Source of the DNA: a plasmid
Assembly (NCBI RefSeq): GCF_057098645.1
Contig: NZ_JBXSPU010000004.1
Length of the DNA stretch: 11,304 bases
Direction: 5' to 3' (one strand)
In this document: positions 1,159 to 11,304 of the stretch, piece by piece
Numbering within the stretch: position 1 is the first letter of the stretch
Layout of the letters: every line of letters starts with the position of its first letter
The notes under the pieces: generated by a model
What the model saw: the letters and a program-made list of their open reading frames with translations, nothing else
What the model was told of the DNA's origin: nothing
The model's database searches: none
Made by a program: the position numbers and the translations under genes

Positions 1159-1353
1159 ATGAATCAGGACAAAGCAATTTATTTAGAAAATAAATATTTT
1201 TCACCCGCAAACGAAGCTGTCAGACTGGAGCGTGAAGGCGATTACATTGGAGCATGGAAAAAATGGAATGATGCGCTTCATTATGCCAAAGGAGAAAATA
1301 TAGGTTGGTGTATAGCCAGAGCTGAATATTGTAAAAAGACAGGCCGGTTTTAA
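1159..1353 (+). CDS. Hypothetical small protein (64 aa), possibly a helical TPR-like fold
   Basis: ORF with AT-rich upstream region and A/T-rich codon usage unlike the flanking GC-rich DNA; only a weak Shine-Dalgarno. No family recognised. Confidence 0.35.
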   Translation: MNQDKAIYLENKYFSPANEAVRLEREGDYIGAWKKWNDALHYAKGENIGWCIARAEYCKKTGRF

Positions 1354-1386: not shown

Positions 1387-1489
1387 GCACCTCGACGTAT
1401 CAAAATGCACCAGCATTTTGTATACAGTCGGTCATGTGCCTCCAGGATTTACCATCAAAAACGCCCCTGTAGTTAATCCTGAATCAAGG

Positions 1490-1584
1490 TATAACTAAGA
1501 TATAATTAGCGTATAACTAAGGCATAACTAAAGTATAACTAACTTGGTGTGCATATAATTAACATATAACTAATGTATAACTAA
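1490..1584 (+). repeat. Array of about eight direct repeats of TATAACTAA phased at 11 bp (iteron-like)
   Basis: Copies start at 1490, 1501 (tataattag), 1512, 1523 (cataactaa), 1534, 1554 (tataattaa), 1565 and 1576; one degenerate slot near 1545. Confidence 0.7.
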
Positions 1585-1770
1585 CGGTTCACCAACGGAT
1601 CGCATGTAGTAGACGCTACATAAAAAATCCTGAAATGGAGGATTCGTCATAAAGAGATTCTTTTTTTTAGCGTTCTGATGCAGAACAGGGCAAACACCGC
1701 AAAAATGATGAAAAACTGATTAACCATACTGTCTGTATTCTGAATGAATTACGAAGCATAGCGATAAATT

Positions 1771-1797
1771 AAAAAATCCCCCTGGATTACAGGGGGA
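1771..1797 (-). terminator. Intrinsic-terminator-like hairpin plus U-tract (minus strand)
   Basis: Plus strand aaaaaa-tccccctg-gatta-caggggga: 8-bp perfect stem; on the minus strand the hairpin is followed by TTTTTT. Confidence 0.4.
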
Positions 1798-1904
1798 AGC
1801 TATCAGAGTTTGAGTAATGAGAAATATTATTTTGGAGAGAGCATCACAAATGCGCTCTTTTCCAATCTGCCGTAACCATCGGCAAAAGACAATCAGGACA
1901 GGCG

Positions 1905-1931
1905 AAAAAATCCCCCTATATGGCAAGGGGG
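1905..1931 (-). terminator. Intrinsic-terminator-like hairpin plus U-tract (minus strand)
   Basis: Plus strand aaaaaa-t-ccccct-atatggca-aggggg: 6-bp GC stem; minus-strand T6 follows. Confidence 0.4.
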
Positions 1932-2028
1932 TGTCAATGAGGACATGGCAATTGTGAGTTTTGTGTGTGTTTTATGTGTTGCAGTTTGCAACGTCAGAAA
2001 TTTGCCGTAGTTCGTCATGAGAGACAAC

Positions 2029-2070
2029 AAAAAAATCCCCCGTGACTGGTGGAGGCCAGGGCAAGGGGGG
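2029..2070 (-). terminator. Intrinsic-terminator-like imperfect hairpin plus U-tract (minus strand)
   Basis: Plus strand aaaaaaa-tcccccgtgactgg...ccagggcaagggggg; CCCCC/GGGGG and CTGG/CCAG arms; minus-strand T7 follows. Confidence 0.3.
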
Positions 2071-2279
2071 TAGCAAATGCCTGAATAATTTTCGTAGTTT
2101 TGATATACCCATCGTTGCAACCGCAACGGGATGAATTTGCCGCAGTTGTGCGCGAAAAACAATCCTGATTCCGGGACAGGATGTGTAATCGTATAACCGC
2201 GCACGCACGGCTATGCGATTACCACCTGGTCAGGGCTTTGCCCCGACACCCTCGACACCGTTCCCGCGATACGATAGAA

Positions 2280-2483
2280 GGGGTTCTAAGCCGGAAACCC
2301 AGAAAATTCCGTCACCAAAGCTAGTAATCGACAGATTTGCATGACGTTGAATAGGTGACGGGTTATGTGACGATATTTGGTGTCGAAATCGTTGTTTCAG
2401 TGACAGTCACTCAATCGATCGTTTGTGTGACACTCCCGTAAAAACTTGTCGCAGAAAAATCCAGGTTTCCGGCCGGGAACCCC
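2280..2483. mobile_element. 204-bp miniature element with Tn3-family-like terminal inverted repeats and 5-bp target duplication (TIME-like, non-autonomous)
   Basis: Left end GGGGTTCTAAGCCGGAAACCCAGAAAATTCCG; right end read inward GGGGTTCCCGGCCGGAAACCTGGATTTTTCTGCG. Both start GGGGTTC like the transposon IRs at 7516 and 11303. Flanked by identical TAGAA at 2275-2279 and 2484-2488. No ORF inside. Confidence 0.6.
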
Positions 2484-2571
2484 TAGAACATCAGGGCGCG
2501 TTTCCGGGTAAACGCATGTTAATGACCGGGAATTCATTGATCAGGGACCGGAGACGCGCTACAAAACTCCT

Positions 2572-2713
2572 GCGCGTTTCTGGCATCAACTGACCATGGG
2601 GATGGTTTGGCAGTAGCAGCAAGCGCCAGAAACGCGCTCAAAACGCCTCTGGCGGCAAAACCATTGCCCGATGCAAAAAAGTGCGTTACAAAGCCTCTGA
2701 GCGCGTTTCTGGC
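2572..2713. repeat. Nested inverted copies of GCGCGTTTCTGGC forming long-range hairpins, followed by a T-tract
   Basis: gcgcgtttctggc at 2572-2584 and 2701-2713; its reverse complement at 2624-2636. The pair 2624-2639 / 2698-2713 is a perfect 16-bp inverted repeat. T6 at 2716-2721. The 15-mer CTGAGCGCGTTTCTG recurs at 3466-3480 inside cer. Confidence 0.5.
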
Positions 2714-3097
2714 GTCTTTTTTGTTGCTGTGTCGCTATACTCGTTGTCAGATTCGCGCTCAATCATCACTGATTAATCTGCGCTTATCCTTCGACTGATC
2801 ACGCTGGTATTTTTTGACAACCGGTTCCCATGAAAACGCCAGACGGGAACCGTCATCCGCACCCTCTGACATGCTGGGGATTAAAAATCCCTGTGCCGCA
2901 CAGCCGGCGTTGCATAAAATTCCGCTCTGCGATGAGTATTGTTTAATCAAAAATCCCCTCGTTTTCTCCAGAAAAACGCGAGTCTGTTCTCATGCCCCGG
3001 ATGCCCACACCCCACGCAAAACCAACTTTTTTCTGATTTGCTTTTTAAATCATGTTGTTATGGTTTGAAAAATATATTTTCTTATTCAGATTTATAC

Positions 3098-3270
3098 AAA
3101 AGCGAGTCGTCGGCGACTACTGGATGATTCGGCAACGAGTCGTCGGTGATTTATCGATGACTCAACACACTGTCTCCCTGGTGTTCAGAAAAAGCGAGTC
3201 GCCAGAGAGTCGCGAGGAAAAATACTGGATGACTCGCTGATGGCTCCCGGGGTGAATCGCTCACGACTCG
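3098..3270. repeat. Cluster of GAGTCG / CGACTC-containing direct and inverted repeats
   Basis: (G/A)CGAGTCGTCGG at 3101-3113 and 3134-3146; ACTGGATGA(T/C)TCG at 3118-3130 and 3224-3236; GAGTCGCC and GAGTCGCG at 3196-3213; CGACTCG at 3264-3270. Confidence 0.5.
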
Positions 3271-3299
3271 TCTGTAACTACTGTCTGATTTCTTCTCAT

Positions 3300-3516
3300 C
3301 AGGGCTGAAAACGTCCGAAAATGCGCCTTATGGGAATCAGGCGCGCCCAAACCGATCGCCATTCAGTTTCATGCATAGTCATGCAGTGCCATGAAAACAA
3401 TCCTGACGTATTTTTCCGGTTTACCCGGGGGGAAAACATCTCTTTTTGCGGTTTTTGCGTCAGAATCGCGCTGAGCGCGTTTCTGCGGTGCGTACAATTA
3501 AGGGATTATGGTAAAT
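3300..3516 (+). other. cer-type multimer resolution site (accessory sequences plus XerC/XerD core)
   Basis: Core at 3487-3516 reads GGTGCGTACAA-TTAAGGGA-TTATGGTAAAT, which is the ColE1 cer XerC arm, 8-bp central region and XerD arm as I recall them. About 190 bp of upstream accessory sequence includes an ARG-box-like segment near 3360-3385. Left boundary approximate. Confidence 0.8.
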
Positions 3517-3524
3517 GTCTCCCT

Positions 3525-3947
3525 TTACTGCCTGCCCTCGTAGCCATCAAGATAAACCGCAGAAATCGTGTCAGCCAGCAGCTTCATTTTTTCCGGTGAT
3601 GGCATATCACCGTTCGTGTATTTTCTGCCAGCAAAGGTTGTTGTGCTCCGGAGTGAGTGAAAAAATTTTTCTGAGTGGAATTCTTTTACACGTTGCTGTG
3701 CCGTTTCTGCTGATACTCCGGCTGCTTTGTCTTTCATCCCCATATCCCGGAACTGCTGAAAGAACGGGTGCATCATACGTATGGTGTCTGCTTTCTGGGT
3801 GTGGAAGTTAGGATCAAATCCATCATCTGAAGCATAAACATAATGCCGGGTATGTCGTTCCAGGCTGGTCTTTGGTGTGCATCCTGTAAGAGCTATTGTT
3901 GCTGTTATCAGAGGTATCAGAAGCAGCCTGACAGCGGCAGATCTCAT
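3525..3947 (-). CDS. Putative lipoprotein (140 aa), function unknown
   Basis: N-terminus MRSAAVRLLLIPLITATIALTGC has a signal peptide and lipobox L-T-G-C; AGGAG Shine-Dalgarno 7 nt upstream on the minus strand. No family recognised. Confidence 0.6.
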   Translation of the reverse strand: MRSAAVRLLLIPLITATIALTGCTPKTSLERHTRHYVYASDDGFDPNFHTQKADTIRMMHPFFQQFRDMGMKDKAAGVSAETAQQRVKEFHSEKFFHSLRSTTTFAGRKYTNGDMPSPEKMKLLADTISAVYLDGYEGRQ

Positions 3948-4068
3948 AAAAATCTCCTTGCGTTTTTAATCTTGATACTCAGGGAGTTATATCTCCGAAG
4001 AGTATCTCTTATCATACGTCGGTTTACTCCCAATGTGATTTGATGGTCAATGAGTCAGGAATAATCCC

Positions 4069-4347
4069 GTGAAAAAATGTGTGCCAGTCCTGCTTTTTAG
4101 TGTTCTTTCTGCTTCGGTTGCCAGTCATGCGGACAGCAATGTTTTTCAACAAAAGGCCGAGAAGACAAAAAACGGCATTGTTGCGGATGTTAATGCCAGA
4201 CAGAAAATGTTCAGTAACAGACTGAAGATACAACTTCAGATCGATGAGTTGAGAGCAGAGCTGGCTGGCACCAGAGATGCCCAAAAAAGAGAGGATTTGC
4301 GTAAAAAACTGGAGTCTCTGGAGCGGCAAAAGAAATCCTTACGCTGA
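4069..4347 (+). CDS. Putative secreted/periplasmic coiled-coil protein (92 aa, GTG start)
   Basis: MKKCVPVLLFSVLSASVASHA has a signal peptide with an AxA-like cleavage motif (SHA-D); the mature part is highly charged with heptad-like K/E/L/R pattern. AGGAA 7 nt upstream of the GTG. Confidence 0.5.
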   Translation: MKKCVPVLLFSVLSASVASHADSNVFQQKAEKTKNGIVADVNARQKMFSNRLKIQLQIDELRAELAGTRDAQKREDLRKKLESLERQKKSLR

Positions 4348-4656
4348 TGGGGGCGTATTTTCCCCGGTTTCTTCCATAACCTTTTTACCGTTCAGATATT
4401 TACGGGCGAGGCGAATGCGTCTTGCCTGGTATACCGCCGAGTAAGCCTGGGTGGGATTCACACCGTTACTGATTTCACTGACCACATGACGCTGATCAGC
4501 CAGTGTCAGCGTGTAAACCTGTTTCTGGATGAGGTCACGGGCTTTGTCATGCTCATATCCGGCAGCAACCAGGGTGTCGAGAAGTCGCTTGTCTGTTTTG
4601 TTCAGTTTATGGCGGGGAGATTTGCTCACATCGTTCTCCGTTTTTTCATGATCCAA
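4339..4656 (-). CDS. Hypothetical small basic protein (105 aa) with a possible helix-turn-helix
   Basis: ORF divergent from the colicin promoter; the segment VVSEISNGVNPTQAYSAVYQARRIR looks like an HTH (turn at NG, then a recognition helix). No family recognised. Confidence 0.45.
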   Translation of the reverse strand: MDHEKTENDVSKSPRHKLNKTDKRLLDTLVAAGYEHDKARDLIQKQVYTLTLADQRHVVSEISNGVNPTQAYSAVYQARRIRLARKYLNGKKVMEETGENTPPSA

Positions 4657-4761
4657 CAGTTTTATATCTCATCCTGATTTGCTCCGGTGTTCTGTTTCGA
4701 CGTTCTCAATGTCTGCCTCCTTGTAGTGTGATCTTTATTGCAAAAATGAAAATCCATGTTC

Positions 4762-4825
4762 TTGACATGGGCAATGCTGAGTAGTAGGTTTTCACTGTAC
4801 ATAAAACCAGTGGTTATATGTACAG
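4762..4825 (+). promoter_or_regulatory. SOS-regulated colicin promoter with two overlapping LexA boxes
   Basis: -35 TTGACA at 4762-4767; overlapping LexA boxes CTGTACATAAAACCAG (4795-4810) and its partner tggttatatgtacag (4811-4825), each CTG-N10-CAG, in the classic colicin arrangement. Confidence 0.8.
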
Positions 4826-4873
4826 TATATTGTTTTTAATTTATTGTTTTAATTATCAAAGAGGAATTTCTTT

Positions 4874-6346
4874 ATGGATAAAGTCACTGATAATTCTCCA
4901 GATGTGGAGAGCACAGAATCTACTGAGGGGTCATTCCCAACCGTTGGGGTTGATACTGGCGATACGATTACAGCGACGCTTGCAACTGGAACTGAAAATG
5001 TTGGTGGAGGCGGTGGAGCATTTGGTGGGGCCAGTGAAAGTTCTGCTGCGATACATGCAACCGCTAAATGGTCTACCGCGCAGTTGAAAAAACATCAGGC
5101 TGAACAGGCTGCCCGTGCTGCTGCGGCTGAGGCAGCATTGGCAAAAGCGAAATCTCAGCGTGATGCCCTGACTCAACGTCTCAAAGATATTGTTAATGAC
5201 GCTTTACGTGCTAATGCCGCCCGTAGTCCATCAGTAACTGACCTTGCTCATGCCAATAATATGGCAATGCAGGCAGAGGCTGAGCGTTTGCGCCTTGCGA
5301 AGGCAGAGCAAAAAGCCCGTGAAGAAGCTGAAGCAGCAGAAAAAGCGCTCCGGGAAGCAGAACGCCAACGTGATGAGATTGCCCGCCAACAGGCTGAAAC
5401 CGAGCATTTGTTAGCTATGGCTGAGGCTGCTGAGGCTGAAAAAAATCGACAGGATTCTCTTGATGAAGAGCATCGGGCTGTGGAAGTGGCGGAGAAGAAT
5501 CTGGCTGAGGCTAAAGCTGAACTGGCGAAGGCTGAAAGCGATGTACAGAGTAAGCAAGCGATTGTTTCCAGAGTTGCAGGGGAGCTTGAAAACGCTCAAA
5601 AAAGTGTTGATGTGAAGGTTACCGGATTTCCTGGATGGCGTGATGTTCAGAAAAAACTAGAGAGACAATTGCAGGATAAGAAGAATGAATATTCGTCAGT
5701 GACAAATGCTCTTAATTCTGCTGTTAGCATTAGAGATGCTAAAAAAACAGAAGTTCAGAATGCTGAGACAAAATTAAAAGAAGCTCAGGATGCGCTTGAG
5801 AAGAGTCAGGTAAAAGATTCTGTTGATACTATGGTTGGGTTTTATCAATATATAACCGAACAATATGGAGAAAAATACGCAAGAATTGCTCAGGATTTAG
5901 CGGAAAAGTCTAAAGGAAAGAAAATTAAAGGTGTTGATGAAGCTTTAGCTGCATTTGAACAGTATAAAAATGTACTGGATAAGAAATTCAGTAAGGTTGA
6001 TAGGGATGCTATTTTTAATTCTTTAGAGTCTGTTAATTATGATGAGTTATCTAAGAATTTAACGAAGATATCAAAGTCGCTTAAAATCACTAGTCGAGTA
6101 TCTTTTCTATATGATGTTGGTTCTGATTTTAAAAATGCAATAGAAACTGGTAACTGGCGTCCTTTATTTGTCACGCTGGAGAAAAGTGCGGTAGATGTAG
6201 GTGTTGCAAAAATTGTGGCATTAATGTTTAGTTTTATTGTCGGCGTGCCTCTTGGTTTCTGGGGGATTGCTATTATCACAGGTATTGTTTCTTCTTACAT
6301 AGGGGATGATGAGTTGAACAAGCTTAATGAATTGCTAGGTATTTAA
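4874..6346 (+). CDS. cta: Pore-forming colicin of the E1 family, colicin 10-like (490 aa)
   Basis: Gly-rich N-terminal region, then [20 protein letters not shown]...[13 protein letters not shown]...LAHANN...ERLRLAKAE matching colicin E1 as I recall it. C-terminal channel domain ends [21 protein letters not shown]...LGI (E1: GIWGIAIVTGILCSYI...EVLGI). The length and the TonB-box-like DTITATL at residues 30-36 fit colicin 10; the symbol is tentative. Confidence 0.9.
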
Positions 6347-6633
6347 TTTCTCTTTAGAGAGTAATATATGAAACTTGGCAATCCTACTGGGATTGCCATT
6401 AATAAATAAAACAATGCAGATAACTTGCATAAATACCAGGGCTCTTTTTTAAATTTTGTATTTTCTTTGATATATCTAGATATGGTTAATTTAGAGTATG
6501 GATATAGCAATACATGTATTGACGATATAAAGACAAATAACAAAGGAGTGTTATCATGGTCGTTAAATATTAAAATAAGAATCCAGGGTATAAGTGATTC
6601 AGGTAAATTATGTAGGTAGTATTTTAAATGCAT
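6343..6633 (-). CDS. cti: Colicin immunity protein, E1-type integral membrane protein (96 aa)
   Basis: Convergent with the colicin gene and overlapping its stop. [10 protein letters not shown]...[22 protein letters not shown]...[14 protein letters not shown] parallels the colicin E1 Imm protein (MSLRYYIKNI...[22 protein letters not shown]...LVLAIPFGLLGLFI). Confidence 0.85.
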
Positions 6634-6662
6634 AAGTATTTTTACTTTTGTTGGAGAGGGAT

Positions 6663-6794
6663 ATGAAAATAATAATTTTTCTAATTACAATATTATTCTT
6701 GTCAGGATGTCAAGCAAACTATATTCGTGATGTACAAGGAGGAACCGTTGCGCCATCTTCGTCTTCTGAACTGACGGGGATCGCGGTTCAGTAG
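6663..6794 (+). CDS. ctl: Colicin lysis (bacteriocin release) lipoprotein, 43 aa
   Basis: Not in the ORF track. Translates to [43 protein letters not shown] with lipobox LSGC; the mature part is essentially identical to the ColE1 Kil mature sequence as I recall it. GGAGAGGG Shine-Dalgarno upstream. Confidence 0.85.
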
Positions 6795-6848: not shown

Positions 6849-6957
6849 GTAAACGAAAAAACCGCCTGGGGAGGCGGTTTAGTCAAAGGTTAAGTCAGTT
6901 GGGGAACAGCTTAACCGGGTAACTGGCTTCAGCAGAGCGCAGATACCAAAAACTTGT
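6849..6957 (-). ncRNA. RNA I antisense copy-number regulator
   Basis: Antisense to the 5' ~110 nt of RNA II; its 5' end corresponds to the complement of cagataccaaaaacttgt (pBR322 RNA I begins ACAGTATTTGGTATCTG); three-stem-loop region. Ends approximate. Confidence 0.65.
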
Positions 6958-7478: not shown

Positions 7479-7515
7479 CTTGCTCACATGTTCTTTCCGG
7501 CGTTATCCCCTGATT

Positions 7516-7553
7516 GGGGTTCCGTGGGAATTTCTGCGATAACACCCGCTAAG
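7516..7553 (+). repeat. Left 38-bp terminal inverted repeat (IRL)
   Basis: GGGGTTCCGTGGGAATTTCTGCGATAACACCCGCTAAG. Confidence 0.85.
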
Positions 7554-7699
7554 CGATTCCTCCCTGACGGAAATCACTTGTTTTCCGTCAGGTCCTGCAG
7601 TTGAAGAAAATTGAATCCATAAATCTGTGATTTTTTGCGTGACAAACCCTGTCGGAATGAGAAACTGTACGGAAACTTCAATTTTAAGGTTTGTCGTAC
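7554..7699 (+). promoter_or_regulatory. res site (resolvase binding subsites) and tnpR promoter region
   Basis: 30-bp palindrome cctgacggaaa-tcacttgt-tttccgtcagg at 7563-7592, plus further TGTCGGAA / TGTACGGAA / TGTCGTACA half-sites at 7648-7700, between IRL and tnpR. Confidence 0.55.
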
Positions 7700-8323
7700 A
7701 TGTTGATTGGTTATATGCGGGTATCAAGCAATGATGAACGTCAGTCAGTTTCTTTGCAGCGTGATGCGTTGATTGCTGCTGGAGTGGATCCCCGGCATTT
7801 ACATCAGGATCATGCTTCAGGTGCTCGTGATAATCGCCCGGGACTTAAGTCCTGTCTCGCTGAACTTCGCGAAGGTGATGTACTGATAGTCTGGAAACTG
7901 GATCGACTTGGTCGTTCACTCTCACATTTGCTCCGAATTATTGAAGACCTGAAAATTCGTGGTATTGCTTTCCGATCATTGACTGAATCTATTGATACAA
8001 CAACGCCACACGGCTCGTTCCTCTTTAACCTTTTTGGCACGCTCGCGGAGTACGAAAGAACACTTATCACAGAACGCGTTAATGCTGGTCTGGCTGCTGC
8101 TCTCCGGCGGGGGAGAAAAGGCGGAAGGCCACCGGCGATAGATGCTGAAAAGGTTGATCAAATCCTCGCAGCTCTGGAAGGAGGTGCCAGTAAAGCGTCA
8201 GTATGTCGCGCATTCAGTGTGCCACGCTCAACGCTCACCGATACTCTACGACGAATTGGCTGGGCCGGACCTGGGGGGCGTAATCTGACAACGGATCAGA
8301 GCAATGTCATTTCTCGACTCTAA
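7700..8323 (+). CDS. tnpR: Serine recombinase (resolvase), Hin/Gin invertase-like
   Basis: MLIGYMRVSSNDERQ...RPGLK...GDVLIVWKLDRLGRS...GIAFRSLTESIDTTTP...GRKGGRPPA parallels Gin (MLIGYVRVSTNDQ...GDTLVVWKLDRLGRSM...GINFRSLTDSIDTSSP...GRIGGRPPK) as recalled. I place the start at ATG 7700 (AAGG about 10 nt upstream); the ORF track starts at an upstream TTG, 7691. Confidence 0.85.
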   Translation: MLIGYMRVSSNDERQSVSLQRDALIAAGVDPRHLHQDHASGARDNRPGLKSCLAELREGDVLIVWKLDRLGRSLSHLLRIIEDLKIRGIAFRSLTESIDTTTPHGSFLFNLFGTLAEYERTLITERVNAGLAAALRRGRKGGRPPAIDAEKVDQILAALEGGASKASVCRAFSVPRSTLTDTLRRIGWAGPGGRNLTTDQSNVISRL

Positions 8324-11270
8324 ATCGTACGATACGCTTTTTGGATTACCTGAACTTTATGAGGATGCACTTCCCCGGTTTTCGCTCTCCTGCGAGGATA
8401 TTGCATTCGCCAGAACTCATCGTCGATCTCATAACCGTCTGGGTTTTGCCATTCAGCTTGCACTTGTCCGTGATCTCGGTCGTACACTGCGTGCAGGAGA
8501 GATTCCCCCGGAGGCTGTTATCACCGTTGTTGCGGAACAACTGGATATTGACCCTGCTGTTTTTACACTTTACGCACAACGTGAGGAAACCCGCCGGGAA
8601 CATGCCCGCGAAATAGTTTCGGCTTTGGAGCTTCGTTCCGTCCGGAGTAGCGATTACAGAATGCTCATTATCGCGGCTACACGCGAAGCAGCAACCACCG
8701 AAAAAGGACTGCCGATCACCAGAGCAGTTATCAATAAGCTGAAGGACCAGAAGTTACTTGCCCCTGCTCCGGCACAACTCATCCGTCTGGCAATGGCGGG
8801 CCGGGCGGCTGCCCGTCGCCTTTCTTATCGGGAACTCATCAGGGATCTGAAACCTTCATCCATTAGCGCTCTCGAGCAGTTGCTTACCGAACGAGTCGGA
8901 GAAAAGAGCATTTTAGGCTGGATAGCTGAAGCGCCGGAAGGCGTGAAACTCAAGAATCTTAAGGGGTTAATTGCCAGGCTGGAGGTATTACGAACAGCGG
9001 CAATCTCCGATGAGCAACGTAAACGGATTCATGTAAACCGTTACGGTATTATTGCCCGGGATTCTCGCGTTTTACATGCGCGTGAAATACAACGAATGGC
9101 ATCCGAACGCTGTCATGCCACGCTGGTAGCCTTTGTTATTGAAAAGCAGGCAGCAATTACAGATCTGGCAATTGATATGTTCTGCAAATTGATTGGCAGC
9201 ACGAGGCGCAGAGCAGAGATAAGCCAGAAAGAGCGTCGTCTGAAAGCCGCTGAAGTACTTGAAGTCGTAGCTCAGGATCATATTAAGTTGGGACGGGCTC
9301 TCCTGGCAGCACGTGACGGTAATACTGATATTGAATCTGTAATAACAGCATCACTCGGCTGGGAAGGTTTGATTGCCAGTATGGAGGCTGCAGCTTCGGT
9401 GGCATCTTCCCATCACTGTTCTGAACTGGATGAACTTATCGGACGACAAAAATCATTACGTAAGCTTGGACGACTCATTTTCAGCGCTTTTTCTTTCAGA
9501 GCTTTTCGCCCGGATGATAGCGTTTTGTTGGCGATTGGGTATTTGCAGGCGTTCTATCATGGCCGAAAATTACCCAAACAAATTCCGCTCGATTTTATGT
9601 CCCATAAATGGCGACGTCGTGTCATCCATGGAGAAAATACCGATCTGCAGGCGTGGGAAGTCGCCGTATTCGTTCATTTGCGGGAACGCCTGAAAACAGG
9701 TGACATATGGGTTGATGGTAGTCGGGCCTGGCGTAGTTTTGAGGACTACCTTCTTCCTCACCATGTTTTCGGGCAGATGCGGGCAGAATCCCGGCTGGGA
9801 CTTGCCATTCCGGACAACTTTGCTGAATGGCGGGCTGAGCGAACCACCACACTCAACGCAAAACTGAAAGCGCTGGCAAAAGCTGCTTCGGAGAATGCCA
9901 TACCCGATGCAGAACTTTCCAGCAGAGGGTTGTCTGTGTCTCCGATTCGCGAAGAAGAGAGCGACAAAATTAAGGCTCTCAGCCGTAAACTCTACATGCT
10001 GGTACCACGCATCAGAATTACCAGTTTGCTGGCAGAAGTTCATAGCTGGACCAGTTTTCTTGATTGTTTCACCCATTATCGCACCGGGGAACAGGCGGAA
10101 GATGAAGCTGCACTTATGGCTGCGATCCTTGCCGATGCGACGAATGCGGGAGCAGAACGGATGGCGCAGAGTTCCCGGGGTGTCACCATTCACCAGATGA
10201 TGGTAATGATGGATCGTCATTTACGCACTGAAACCTATGCGTCTGCCACATCAGTTCTGGTCGATGCGCAACAGGAACATCCTTTTGCTGCTATATGGGG
10301 GGATGGGCATGTGTCATCCTCGGACGGGCAGTTTTTTCCTGCGGGTGGACGAGGAGAAGCCAGCCTCGAATATAACGCCAAATACGGCAAACGACCTGGC
10401 GCGTCGATTTATGGTTTTTTATCGAACCGTTTTGCATCCTTTTTTTCCAGAATGATTCAGGCCTCTGAAAGCGAGGCTCCCTACGTACTTGACGGCTTAC
10501 TTCATAACGAAAGTTCTGTGGTAATTCATGAGCATGCCACCGATACAGCCGGTGCGACTGAAACAACATTTTCAATGTTTCACTCTTTTGGTTACAGACT
10601 CATACCCCGTATTCGCAACCTCGGCAGTCGCAGGTTGTACGTTATTTCCCCCTCAGAGGAATATAAACCACTTGATGCCCTGATCGCCGGAAAGGCCAAA
10701 ATGGAAGTAATAGAACAGCACTGGGATGAAGTTCTGCGGCTTAAGGCCTCGATCGGCGCTGGTCTGGTACCACCATCGGTAATACTGAAAAAGCTGGCAG
10801 CATCTCCGAGACAAAACAGGCTCAATCTGGCCCTGCGTGAAATGGGACGTATTGAACGCTCAATTTTTATCTGTGACTGGTTGCTTGACACTCGGTTACG
10901 TCGCAGATCACACGCAATCCTCAACAAAGGCGAAAGCCGCCATGCACTTGCCCGCGCTATTTTTCTTCACCAACTGGGCGAATTCCGGAACAGGGCTGCC
11001 GAGACAATGGCTCACAGGGCATCGGGCCTCAACCTTGTTGTTAATGCAATAATTCTGTGGAACACGGTCTATCTCAGTCGGGCTGTTGATTACATTCGCA
11101 GCCAGGGGATCATTATACCGGAAGAGCTCTTGTCCAGTGTATCACCACTACCATGGGGTCATATCTCGCTCACTGGAGATTACCTGTGGAACGAAATTGA
11201 CCATCCCCTTGAACGATACAGGCCACTTCGTACTAATCGCTTCAATCCAAAGAACTTCACTTTTCCTTAG
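8304..11270 (+). CDS. tnpA: Tn3-family DDE transposase (988 aa)
   Basis: HNRLGFAIQLALVRDLG, NKGESRHALARAIFLHQLGEFRNR and NAIILWNTVYLSRAVDYIRSQG mirror Tn3 TnpA motifs (HNRLGIALQIGCVRFLG, NRGESRHAVARAICHGQKGEIRKR, NAVVLWNTIYMQAALDHLRAQG). Overlaps the tnpR 3' end by 20 nt. Confidence 0.93.
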   Translation: MSFLDSKSYDTLFGLPELYEDALPRFSLSCEDIAFARTHRRSHNRLGFAIQLALVRDLGRTLRAGEIPPEAVITVVAEQLDIDPAVFTLYAQREETRREHAREIVSALELRSVRSSDYRMLIIAATREAATTEKGLPITRAVINKLKDQKLLAPAPAQLIRLAMAGRAAARRLSYRELIRDLKPSSISALEQLLTERVGEKSILGWIAEAPEGVKLKNLKGLIARLEVLRTAAISDEQRKRIHVNRYGIIARDSRVLHAREIQRMASERCHATLVAFVIEKQAAITDLAIDMFCKLIGSTRRRAEISQKERRLKAAEVLEVVAQDHIKLGRALLAARDGNTDIESVITASLGWEGLIASMEAAASVASSHHCSELDELIGRQKSLRKLGRLIFSAFSFRAFRPDDSVLLAIGYLQAFYHGRKLPKQIPLDFMSHKWRRRVIHGENTDLQAWEVAVFVHLRERLKTGDIWVDGSRAWRSFEDYLLPHHVFGQMRAESRLGLAIPDNFAEWRAERTTTLNAKLKALAKAASENAIPDAELSSRGLSVSPIREEESDKIKALSRKLYMLVPRIRITSLLAEVHSWTSFLDCFTHYRTGEQAEDEAALMAAILADATNAGAERMAQSSRGVTIHQMMVMMDRHLRTETYASATSVLVDAQQEHPFAAIWGDGHVSSSDGQFFPAGGRGEASLEYNAKYGKRPGASIYGFLSNRFASFFSRMIQASESEAPYVLDGLLHNESSVVIHEHATDTAGATETTFSMFHSFGYRLIPRIRNLGSRRLYVISPSEEYKPLDALIAGKAKMEVIEQHWDEVLRLKASIGAGLVPPSVILKKLAASPRQNRLNLALREMGRIERSIFICDWLLDTRLRRRSHAILNKGESRHALARAIFLHQLGEFRNRAAETMAHRASGLNLVVNAIILWNTVYLSRAVDYIRSQGIIIPEELLSSVSPLPWGHISLTGDYLWNEIDHPLERYRPLRTNRFNPKNFTFP

Positions 11271-11303
11271 CGTGTGTTATCGCAGAAATGCCCACGGAAC
11301 CCC
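11266..11303 (-). repeat. Right 38-bp terminal inverted repeat (IRR)
   Basis: Reverse complement reads GGGGTTCCGTGGGCATTTCTGCGATAACACACGCTAAG; differs from IRL at positions 14 and 31. Confidence 0.85.
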
Positions 11304-11304
11304 T

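Follow-up and report, generated by a model that had tools for sequence, protein, structure and literature searches.

Three separable small genes, one of them exc2, in the variable interval between cer and the colicin promoter of a ColE1-type plasmid

What fills the interval between the cer site and the colicin promoter of a ColE1-type plasmid, and do the genes found there form a single system? The question is raised by an 11,304-nucleotide stretch of plasmid DNA (contig NZ_JBXSPU010000004.1 of assembly GCF_057098645.1; hereafter the window), which is a ColE1-type colicin plasmid. The original prediction, made from the sequence without database searches, had placed three small open reading frames (ORFs) in this interval, at 3525 to 3947 (minus strand), 4069 to 4347 (plus strand), and 4339 to 4656 (minus strand), and all three were found at these positions; they are referred to here as ORF-A, ORF-B, and ORF-C. 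It had read them as one cluster of a lipoprotein, a secreted protein, and a helix-turn-helix-like protein that could not be placed in families. Our comparative analysis describes them as three separable small genes in a variable backbone interval of ColE1-type plasmids, with ORF-C possibly a nucleic acid-binding regulator, a reading that we regard as reasonably probable when taken whole. The separability, synteny, and coding constraint of the genes were observed, and the structural and evolutionary side of this reading is well supported; the assignment of ORF-C as a nucleic acid-binding regulator is plausible.

Comparison with ColE1 (NC_001371) overturned the view that ColE1 has no equivalent genes, since exc2 and exc1 fill this very interval there, with an Exc2 family lipoprotein at 3943 to 4362 and entry exclusion protein 1 at 4443 to 4880, both on the minus strand. 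By blastn, window positions 3465 to 4015 match ColE1 3887 to 4426, covering the cer core, exc2, and the region upstream of exc2, and positions 4729 to 4869 match the ColE1 colicin promoter (4996 to 5136) at 80% identity. The 713-bp segment from 4016 to 4728 has no ColE1 counterpart in the same search and holds ORF-B and ORF-C; because its flanks match ColE1 and it does not, the two genes constitute a cassette in place of the exc1 segment. ORF-A is orthologous to exc2 of ColE1: the two proteins share 68% identity over the full length, and ORF-A scores 172.1 bits against the NCBIfam model NF033828 ("Exc2 family lipoprotein"; curated cutoff of 35 bits), covering profile positions 6 to 131 of 131. 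The lipoprotein assignment is borne out by the lipobox I-A-L-T-G-C23, read by inspection from the translation, in which C23 is nearly invariant among 28 homologues. ORF-A and ColE1 exc2 share this lipobox, the strand, and a stop codon only a few base pairs from the cer core, and nothing of substance sets them apart, the function of the family itself being unproven.

The cassette genes show no relationship to the gene whose place they take. Searches of ORF-B and ORF-C against Exc1 gave no alignment or an E value of 6 by BLASTP and probabilities of 0.1 to 0.7% by hhalign, and Pfam returned nothing for ColE1 Exc1. The 145-aa exc1 of ColE1 lies in the same interval between exc2 and an SOS bacteriocin promoter, on the same strand and in the same divergent orientation as ORF-C, and its function is described as unknown (PMC2831885), as is the case for the slot genes here. 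It differs in that the ColE1 slot contains one gene, whereas the slot in the window contains two convergent genes with one product predicted to be exported; Exc1 also has a weak excisionase/MerR-like N terminus and a coiled-coil-like tail.

Among the plasmids compared, at least four arrangements are found between the cer core and the bacteriocin promoter. The interval consists of ORF-C only in a pColJs-like plasmid (locus L004), a plasmid of the PAAR/pyocin-S type (L019), and a pesticin plasmid (L023); of exc2 without any slot gene in a Klebsiella ColRNAI plasmid; of exc2 and exc1 in ColE1; and of exc2 followed by convergent ORF-B and ORF-C in the window, in pColK-type plasmids, and in a plasmid with a ColA-like pore former. 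ORF-C thus occurs with neither Exc2 nor ORF-B on pPCP1, pColJs-like, colicin S4, and pyocin-S-type plasmids, and ORF-B occurs alone at one locus (L008). Exc2 was detected in 928 PLSDB plasmid records from many genera, most of them without ORF-B and ORF-C, compared with 200 records for ORF-C and 114 for ORF-B. At 95% identity or more, the window-type ORF-C and ORF-B are found in approximately 106 and 102 plasmid records, and ORF-B accompanies the window-type ORF-C clade in a nearly one-to-one fashion. ORF-B was undetected in the pPCP1-type loci examined (L003 and L004) and is absent from the Yersinia records of PLSDB, and a pseudogene of ORF-B is present on an IncF plasmid (L005). The trio has already been deposited in about 100 plasmids, with its two orphans as hypothetical proteins. 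Since each of the genes occurs separately in other plasmids, they are not an obligate system, and the proposal of one three-gene unit with its own regulator is not sustained. In one further record (NZ_CP050864.1), Exc2, ORF-B, and ORF-C are intact next to a colicin gene (5575 to 6672) that is truncated to 365 aa with loss of the pore-forming domain, and both an immunity and a lysis gene are missing from the annotation of the record.

ORF-B and ORF-C are genuine genes under purifying selection. The in-frame ratio of nonsynonymous to synonymous substitution rates (dN/dS) is 0.18 to 0.29 for ORF-B, measured against copies at a synonymous divergence (dS) of 0.3 to 1.1, and 0.34 to 0.36 for ORF-C, measured against the copies on pPCP1 and on a 5.2-kb plasmid. 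The other frames of the two genes give 0.6 to 2.6, except for the antisense frame that shares their wobble positions (0.24 to 0.54), for which the ORF list has no entry of 40 aa or more. An opposite-strand ORF at 4024 to 4329, which is the exact reverse-complement frame of ORF-B, gives 0.6 to 1.15. Conservation across related plasmids, on which the original prediction had been staked, was found for all three genes. The GTG start of ORF-B and its AGGA motif are kept in L008 and L009. For ORF-C the predicted reading frame holds and the start probably does not: the gene most likely begins at GTG 4629 and encodes 96 aa, because the 9 N-terminal residues peculiar to the 105-aa form (from TTG 4656) are unconserved, the Prokaryotic Genome Annotation Pipeline calls the shorter form, and a GGAG motif lies 6 nucleotides before GTG 4629. 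The 105-aa form is unsupported. The last 9 bp of ORF-C overlap ORF-B convergently.

ORF-C is a basic protein (isoelectric point, 9.9) whose AlphaFold2 model reaches a predicted local distance difference test score above 90 for 71 residues and contains four helices (residues 20 to 31, 36 to 47, 52 to 63, and 68 to 88). The core of the family alignment runs from K20 to K93, and the invariant residues cluster in helix 3, in the turn at G65, and in the arginine-rich helix 4 (YQARRIRLARKYL), helices 3 and 4 being linked by a conserved G-V-x-P turn. From its basic character, four-helix architecture, conserved turn, and conserved arginine-rich helix, we infer that ORF-C binds nucleic acid, and the distribution of its invariant residues would be compatible with a helix-turn-helix or another nucleic acid-binding module. 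The family is very narrow. An exhaustive profile search with the ORF-C alignment gave 21 matches among 1.84 billion representatives, none of them annotated; ORF-C matches phrog_36305, a family of unknown function, with an E value of 1e-38, and a search of a phage collection with ORF-C found no match. Profile searches, the kind of check that had been proposed, identified ORF-A as an Exc2 family member and found no characterized family for the other two products: ORF-B and ORF-C match no Pfam, NCBIfam, or PADLOC family and no convincing fold, so that the difficulty of placing the genes in families was real for these two and not for ORF-A. The papers on pColK, pColJs, pPCP1, and BipA contain nothing on ORF-B or ORF-C beyond "hypothetical protein," and no study of the ORF-C family was found.

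A constant feature of the contexts examined, wherever the toxin side is visible, is that the ORF-C homologue and a bacteriocin or toxin operon diverge from each other, with ORF-C on the upstream side of the operon; all of these plasmids carry rop or RNAI. Eleven toxin types are found opposite ORF-C. They include colicin 10 (the window encodes a colicin 10-like pore former), colicin K, a ColA_N-type (A-like) pore former, and colicin S4; pesticin, on Yersinia pestis pPCP1 and two other contigs; a toxin with a colicin Js/Z-like C terminus; and PAAR and Pyocin_S with CdiI_5. The remaining four contexts are linked to rop, which stands between the toxin and ORF-C, and contain VgrG3_C with TsiV3; PAAR with DUF3289 and DUF943; DUF3289 and DUF943 without a PAAR gene; and a 714-aa glucosaminidase. 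RNAI follows immediately after the toxin operon in all contexts. For the most distant ORF-C homologue the contig is cut off upstream of rop, and no toxin is visible on it. The loci L011 to L016 and L018 to L022 come from small rop/RNAI (ColE1-type) plasmids of Lelliottia and metagenomes and carry toxins resembling type VI secretion system effectors at the position of the E. coli colicins, for example PAAR, VgrG3_C with TsiV3, DUF3289 with DUF943, and Pyocin_S with CdiI_5.

Within the E. coli/Yersinia lineage, homology continues without a gap from the core of ORF-C across the entire intergenic region up to the toxin ATG (window 4382 to 4876, approximately 71% identity), and ORF-C is inherited as one block with an SOS promoter of the CRP/LexA type. 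One relative is YPPCP1.06 (YP_pPCP07) of Y. pestis pPCP1, a true ORF-C homologue that is 76% identical over the core and likewise divergent from an SOS-type bacteriocin promoter, that of pesticin; it differs from the window in lacking exc2 and ORF-B and in having pla on the other side. YPPCP1.06 is known only as a hypothetical protein that shares a promoter region with pst (PMC3010648). Within the control region, a CRP-like site, a -35 hexamer, and overlapping LexA boxes form invariant blocks across the colicin 10, K, A-like, pesticin, and Js-like contexts. We take the first and last of these to be CRP and LexA sites on the basis of consensus sequences and of the known organization of colicin promoters. 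The CRP-like site, just upstream of the -35 hexamer, approaches the consensus most closely beside pesticin and the Js-like toxin (GTGA-N6-TCACA; L003, L004, and L023), and this site and the CAAAAATGAAA run that follows rank among the best-conserved stretches between the divergent genes.

Most simply, these observations would be explained by the exchange of toxin cargo within a fixed slot that has the RNAII promoter as one border and ORF-C or rop-ORF-C as the other, the order being always ORF-C (or rop-ORF-C), divergent toxin operon, and RNAI with the origin. ORF-C, as a cytoplasmic, basic, four-helix protein, would most likely act at the shared divergent control region, regulate itself, and perhaps tune toxin expression. 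A gene for a small basic protein that stands back to back with a tightly regulated, co-inherited promoter is a classic regulator arrangement. Several points weigh against this interpretation. Neither the promoter scan, which gave nothing above shuffle expectation and assigned no promoter confidently in 4630 to 4728, nor the six-way alignment defined a conserved ORF-C promoter or operator; likewise, none is definable in the nonhomologous intergenic regions of L019 and of the rop-linked contexts. No helix-turn-helix family or other family of known function matches ORF-C: the best Pfam match was Cas_Csa5 (E = 0.16), NCBIfam gave nothing relevant, and among PHROGs a "transcriptional repressor" family reached only an E value of 0.079, so the helix-turn-helix label given to ORF-C at the outset has no profile match behind it. 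Its relatives in the AlphaFold Database are all uncharacterized Vibrionaceae proteins. The localization of Exc2 and ORF-B follows from sequence rules only, and the interpretation offers no role for ORF-B. In addition, the association with toxins could be purely historical, the cargo slot being fixed by descent, and since the association may arise in this way the eleven toxin contexts are not independent.

A more far-reaching version of the regulator interpretation would make the ORF-C family a dedicated, plasmid-encoded regulator of SOS-inducible bacteriocin promoters, co-inherited with the promoter and reused for at least 11 unrelated toxin cargos, and would take in YPPCP1.06 and the genes on pColK, pCol10, pColS4, and pColJs-like plasmids. 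We put this forward tentatively and think it unlikely in its full extent. Comparably doubtful is the alternative that ORF-C is an accessory of replication or maintenance working with Rop, a small RNA-binding protein acting on RNAI/RNAII or Rcd, and that its proximity to toxins is incidental. The most distant homologues favor it: rop and ORF-C share one strand, with a 4-bp overlap at the rop stop codon, in L011 to L014 and L016 (5001 to 5004; 4155 to 4158 in L013) and in L017 (457 to 460), an overlap that suggests translational coupling of ORF-C to rop in these distant relatives. The constant company of rop or RNAI, the arginine-rich helix, and the immediate adjacency of the ORF-C 3' end to the cer core in L004, L019, and L023 point in the same direction. 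However, the E. coli and Yersinia clades have ORF-C kilobases away from rop and inherited with the toxin promoter block, ORF-C resembles neither Rop nor any RNA-binding family, and ColE1, which is itself without ORF-C, replicates normally.

Less probable again is the idea raised by the original prediction, that the trio is one envelope-directed module, serving self-protection from the colicin or its lysis protein, entry or surface exclusion, or a second toxin-immunity pair, with ORF-C as its regulator. It gains from the predicted export of two of the three products, which agrees with the initial description. Besides the ORF-A lipobox, which with Thr at +2 would probably send Exc2 to the outer membrane, ORF-B has a predicted Sec signal peptide with the n, h, and c regions MKK, CVPVLLFSVLSASVA, and SHA and cleavage after A21 before D, as judged by inspection. 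The cleavage motif (S/A-H-A followed by D/E) is kept in homologues at 64 to 83% identity, including P0062 and P0055, H20 is nearly invariant, and the signal peptide is retained in homologues down to approximately 63% identity. ORF-B would accordingly be expected in the periplasm, exported via Sec as a basic, presumably helical protein of 71 aa (predicted isoelectric point, 10.2) rich in K, R, E, Q, and L. The near-equal record numbers of window-type ORF-C and ORF-B, the intact trio beside colicins K, 10, and A-like, and the historical name of Exc2, "entry exclusion protein 2," with which the guess of exclusion coincides, also speak for such a module. Against it, the genes occur apart, with Exc2 widespread mostly alone; no PADLOC model matches any of the three at E values up to 1; and searches of Pfam, NCBIfam, and PDB sequences revealed no toxin or immunity family resembling ORF-B or Exc2. 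ORF-B has no match in PDB, the Exc2 profile retrieved nothing from PDB sequences, and for Exc2 Pfam gave nothing and no fold was assignable.

The exclusion version of this module also conflicts with later work on ColE1. The names exc1 and exc2 reportedly stem from the 1985 ColE1 sequence paper. According to a 2024 paper (PMC11493245, citing Yamada 1995) and to PMC2831885, the mild exclusion phenotype of ColE1 was later assigned to mbeD. No demonstration of an entry exclusion function for Exc2 was found in the accessible literature. MbeD, a small helical plasmid protein, is a conceivable functional analogue of ORF-B; however, it is part of the mob operon, absent from this plasmid, and has no similarity to ORF-B (no BLASTP alignment; hhalign probability of 3%) or to ORF-C. 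No Mbe (mobilization) homologue is detectable in this plasmid, including positions 1401 to 3300. The only ORF-B homologue found outside colicin plasmids (L008, 1127 to 1399) lies 345 bp downstream of an AdeS/BaeS-like sensor kinase gene (24 to 782) of the envelope-stress or efflux type, and RelE/ParE and PemK toxin-antitoxin genes adjoin.

Finally, that ORF-B and/or ORF-C are chance ORFs spread by automatic annotation is highly improbable and largely refuted: an open frame by itself means little because the window contains 89 ORFs of 40 aa or more, both genes are labeled only as hypothetical proteins, and no promoter rises above shuffle expectation, but this is outweighed by the in-frame substitution ratios set against those of other frames and of the opposite-strand ORF, by the conserved start codons, Shine-Dalgarno sequences, and ORF-B cleavage motif, and by the confident model of ORF-C.

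The coordinates of all features are collected in Table 1.

Table 1. Positions of the features discussed, numbered from the first nucleotide of the window
Feature	Positions	Strand	Basis or remarks
rop	342-536	minus	
cer crossover core (XerC site, 8-bp central region, XerD site), GGTGCGTACAATTAAGGGATTATGGTAAAT	3487-3516	plus	Exact 30-mer match, chance expectation none; XerC and XerD halves presumed
exc2 (ORF-A), Exc2-family lipoprotein	3525-3947	minus	140 aa; lipobox LTGC with Cys23, Thr at +2
Divergent intergenic region exc2/ORF-B, AT-rich (38% GC)	3948-4068		blastn breakpoints, GC content
ORF-B	4069-4347	plus	92-aa precursor; GTG start, AGGA 8 nucleotides upstream
ORF-C	4339-4629	minus	96 aa from GTG 4629; GGAG at 4636-4639 (complementary strand)
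Candidate terminator for the ORF-B/ORF-C convergent pair	4348-4366	plus	Short GC hairpin, then T-rich run; weak
ORF-C-specific 5' region, absent from ColE1, common to other ORF-C contexts	4630-4728		blastn breakpoints, six-context alignment
CRP-like site (putative)	4727-4742		TGTGA-N6-TTGCA
Bacteriocin control region	4729-4873	plus	Shine-Dalgarno sequence before colicin ATG 4874; 80% identical to ColE1 4996-5136
-35 hexamer	4762-4767		TTGACA
Overlapping LexA boxes (putative)	4795-4825		CTG-N10-CAG box found
Pore-forming colicin, colicin 10-like	4874-6346		490 aa; ORF list and annotation
Immunity gene	6343-6633		Strand opposite to colicin
Lysis gene	6648-6794		
RNAI	6853-6954	minus	
Tn3-family transposon	7514-11304		Resolvase 7691-8323, transposase 8304-11270

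At the other end of the interval, the stop codon of exc2 lies at a distance of 9 bp from the final base of the cer core, as predicted, and the corresponding distance in ColE1 is 5 bp (exc2 end at 3943). The identical 30-mer core is present in ColE1 (L002, 3909 to 3938) and in pColK-type loci, and its XerC and XerD halves were assigned by analogy with ColE1 cer. The direction proposed for transcription from within cer also agrees with published work, according to which rcd and RNAII invariably share one direction of transcription (PMC2831885). As RNAI lies on the minus strand of the window, RNAII is on the plus strand, and Pcer transcription, running in the RNAII direction, heads toward the 3' end of exc2. 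Because ColE1 has the same arrangement, it is not special to this plasmid. The homology with ColE1 stops at 4015, inside the intergenic region between exc2 and ORF-B, where the single promoter-like site (minus strand, 4039 to 4011) is no more than shuffled sequences give. The candidate terminator hairpin sits just past the ORF-B stop codon, within the 3' end of ORF-C, and the count of terminator-like sites is only slightly above the shuffle mean.

The Tn3-family transposon of the window sits between the origin and rop and has terminal inverted repeats of approximately 38 bp and a 5-bp target duplication (TGATT). The plasmid NZ_CP062882.1 (E. coli O157:H16, pig feces; L035) has the same backbone and transposon at 99.9% identity. 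The insertion sites differ, the transposon of NZ_CP062882.1 (1469 to 5257) interrupting the colicin gene. In L025 and L032, a transposon of equal gene content (207-aa resolvase and 988-aa Tn3-type transposase) replaces ORF-C and the colicin, or ORF-B too. The segment of approximately 1.9 kb from 1401 to 3300 carries no annotated gene in any related record, and an 80-bp piece at approximately 2172 to 2251 recurs across many plasmid records, large conjugative ones included. For a 64-aa ORF at 1159 to 1353 (plus strand), related records give the annotation "ANR family transcriptional regulator" (AraC negative regulator type).

Collectively, the cluster that had seemed unfamiliar is part of a classical colicin plasmid backbone, namely, its exc region, real but largely ordinary, with Exc2 already named. 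The names "entry exclusion protein 1" and "entry exclusion protein 2" go back to an assignment later moved to mbeD, and users of these annotations should infer no function from them. A modest lead comes from the position of ORF-C next to the cargo promoter in all bacteriocin and toxin contexts examined, among them the pesticin locus of the plague plasmid pPCP1. If the regulator interpretation of the family is true, ORF-C would add a plasmid-borne layer to the control of colicins and pesticin, which is now explained by host factors such as LexA and CRP.

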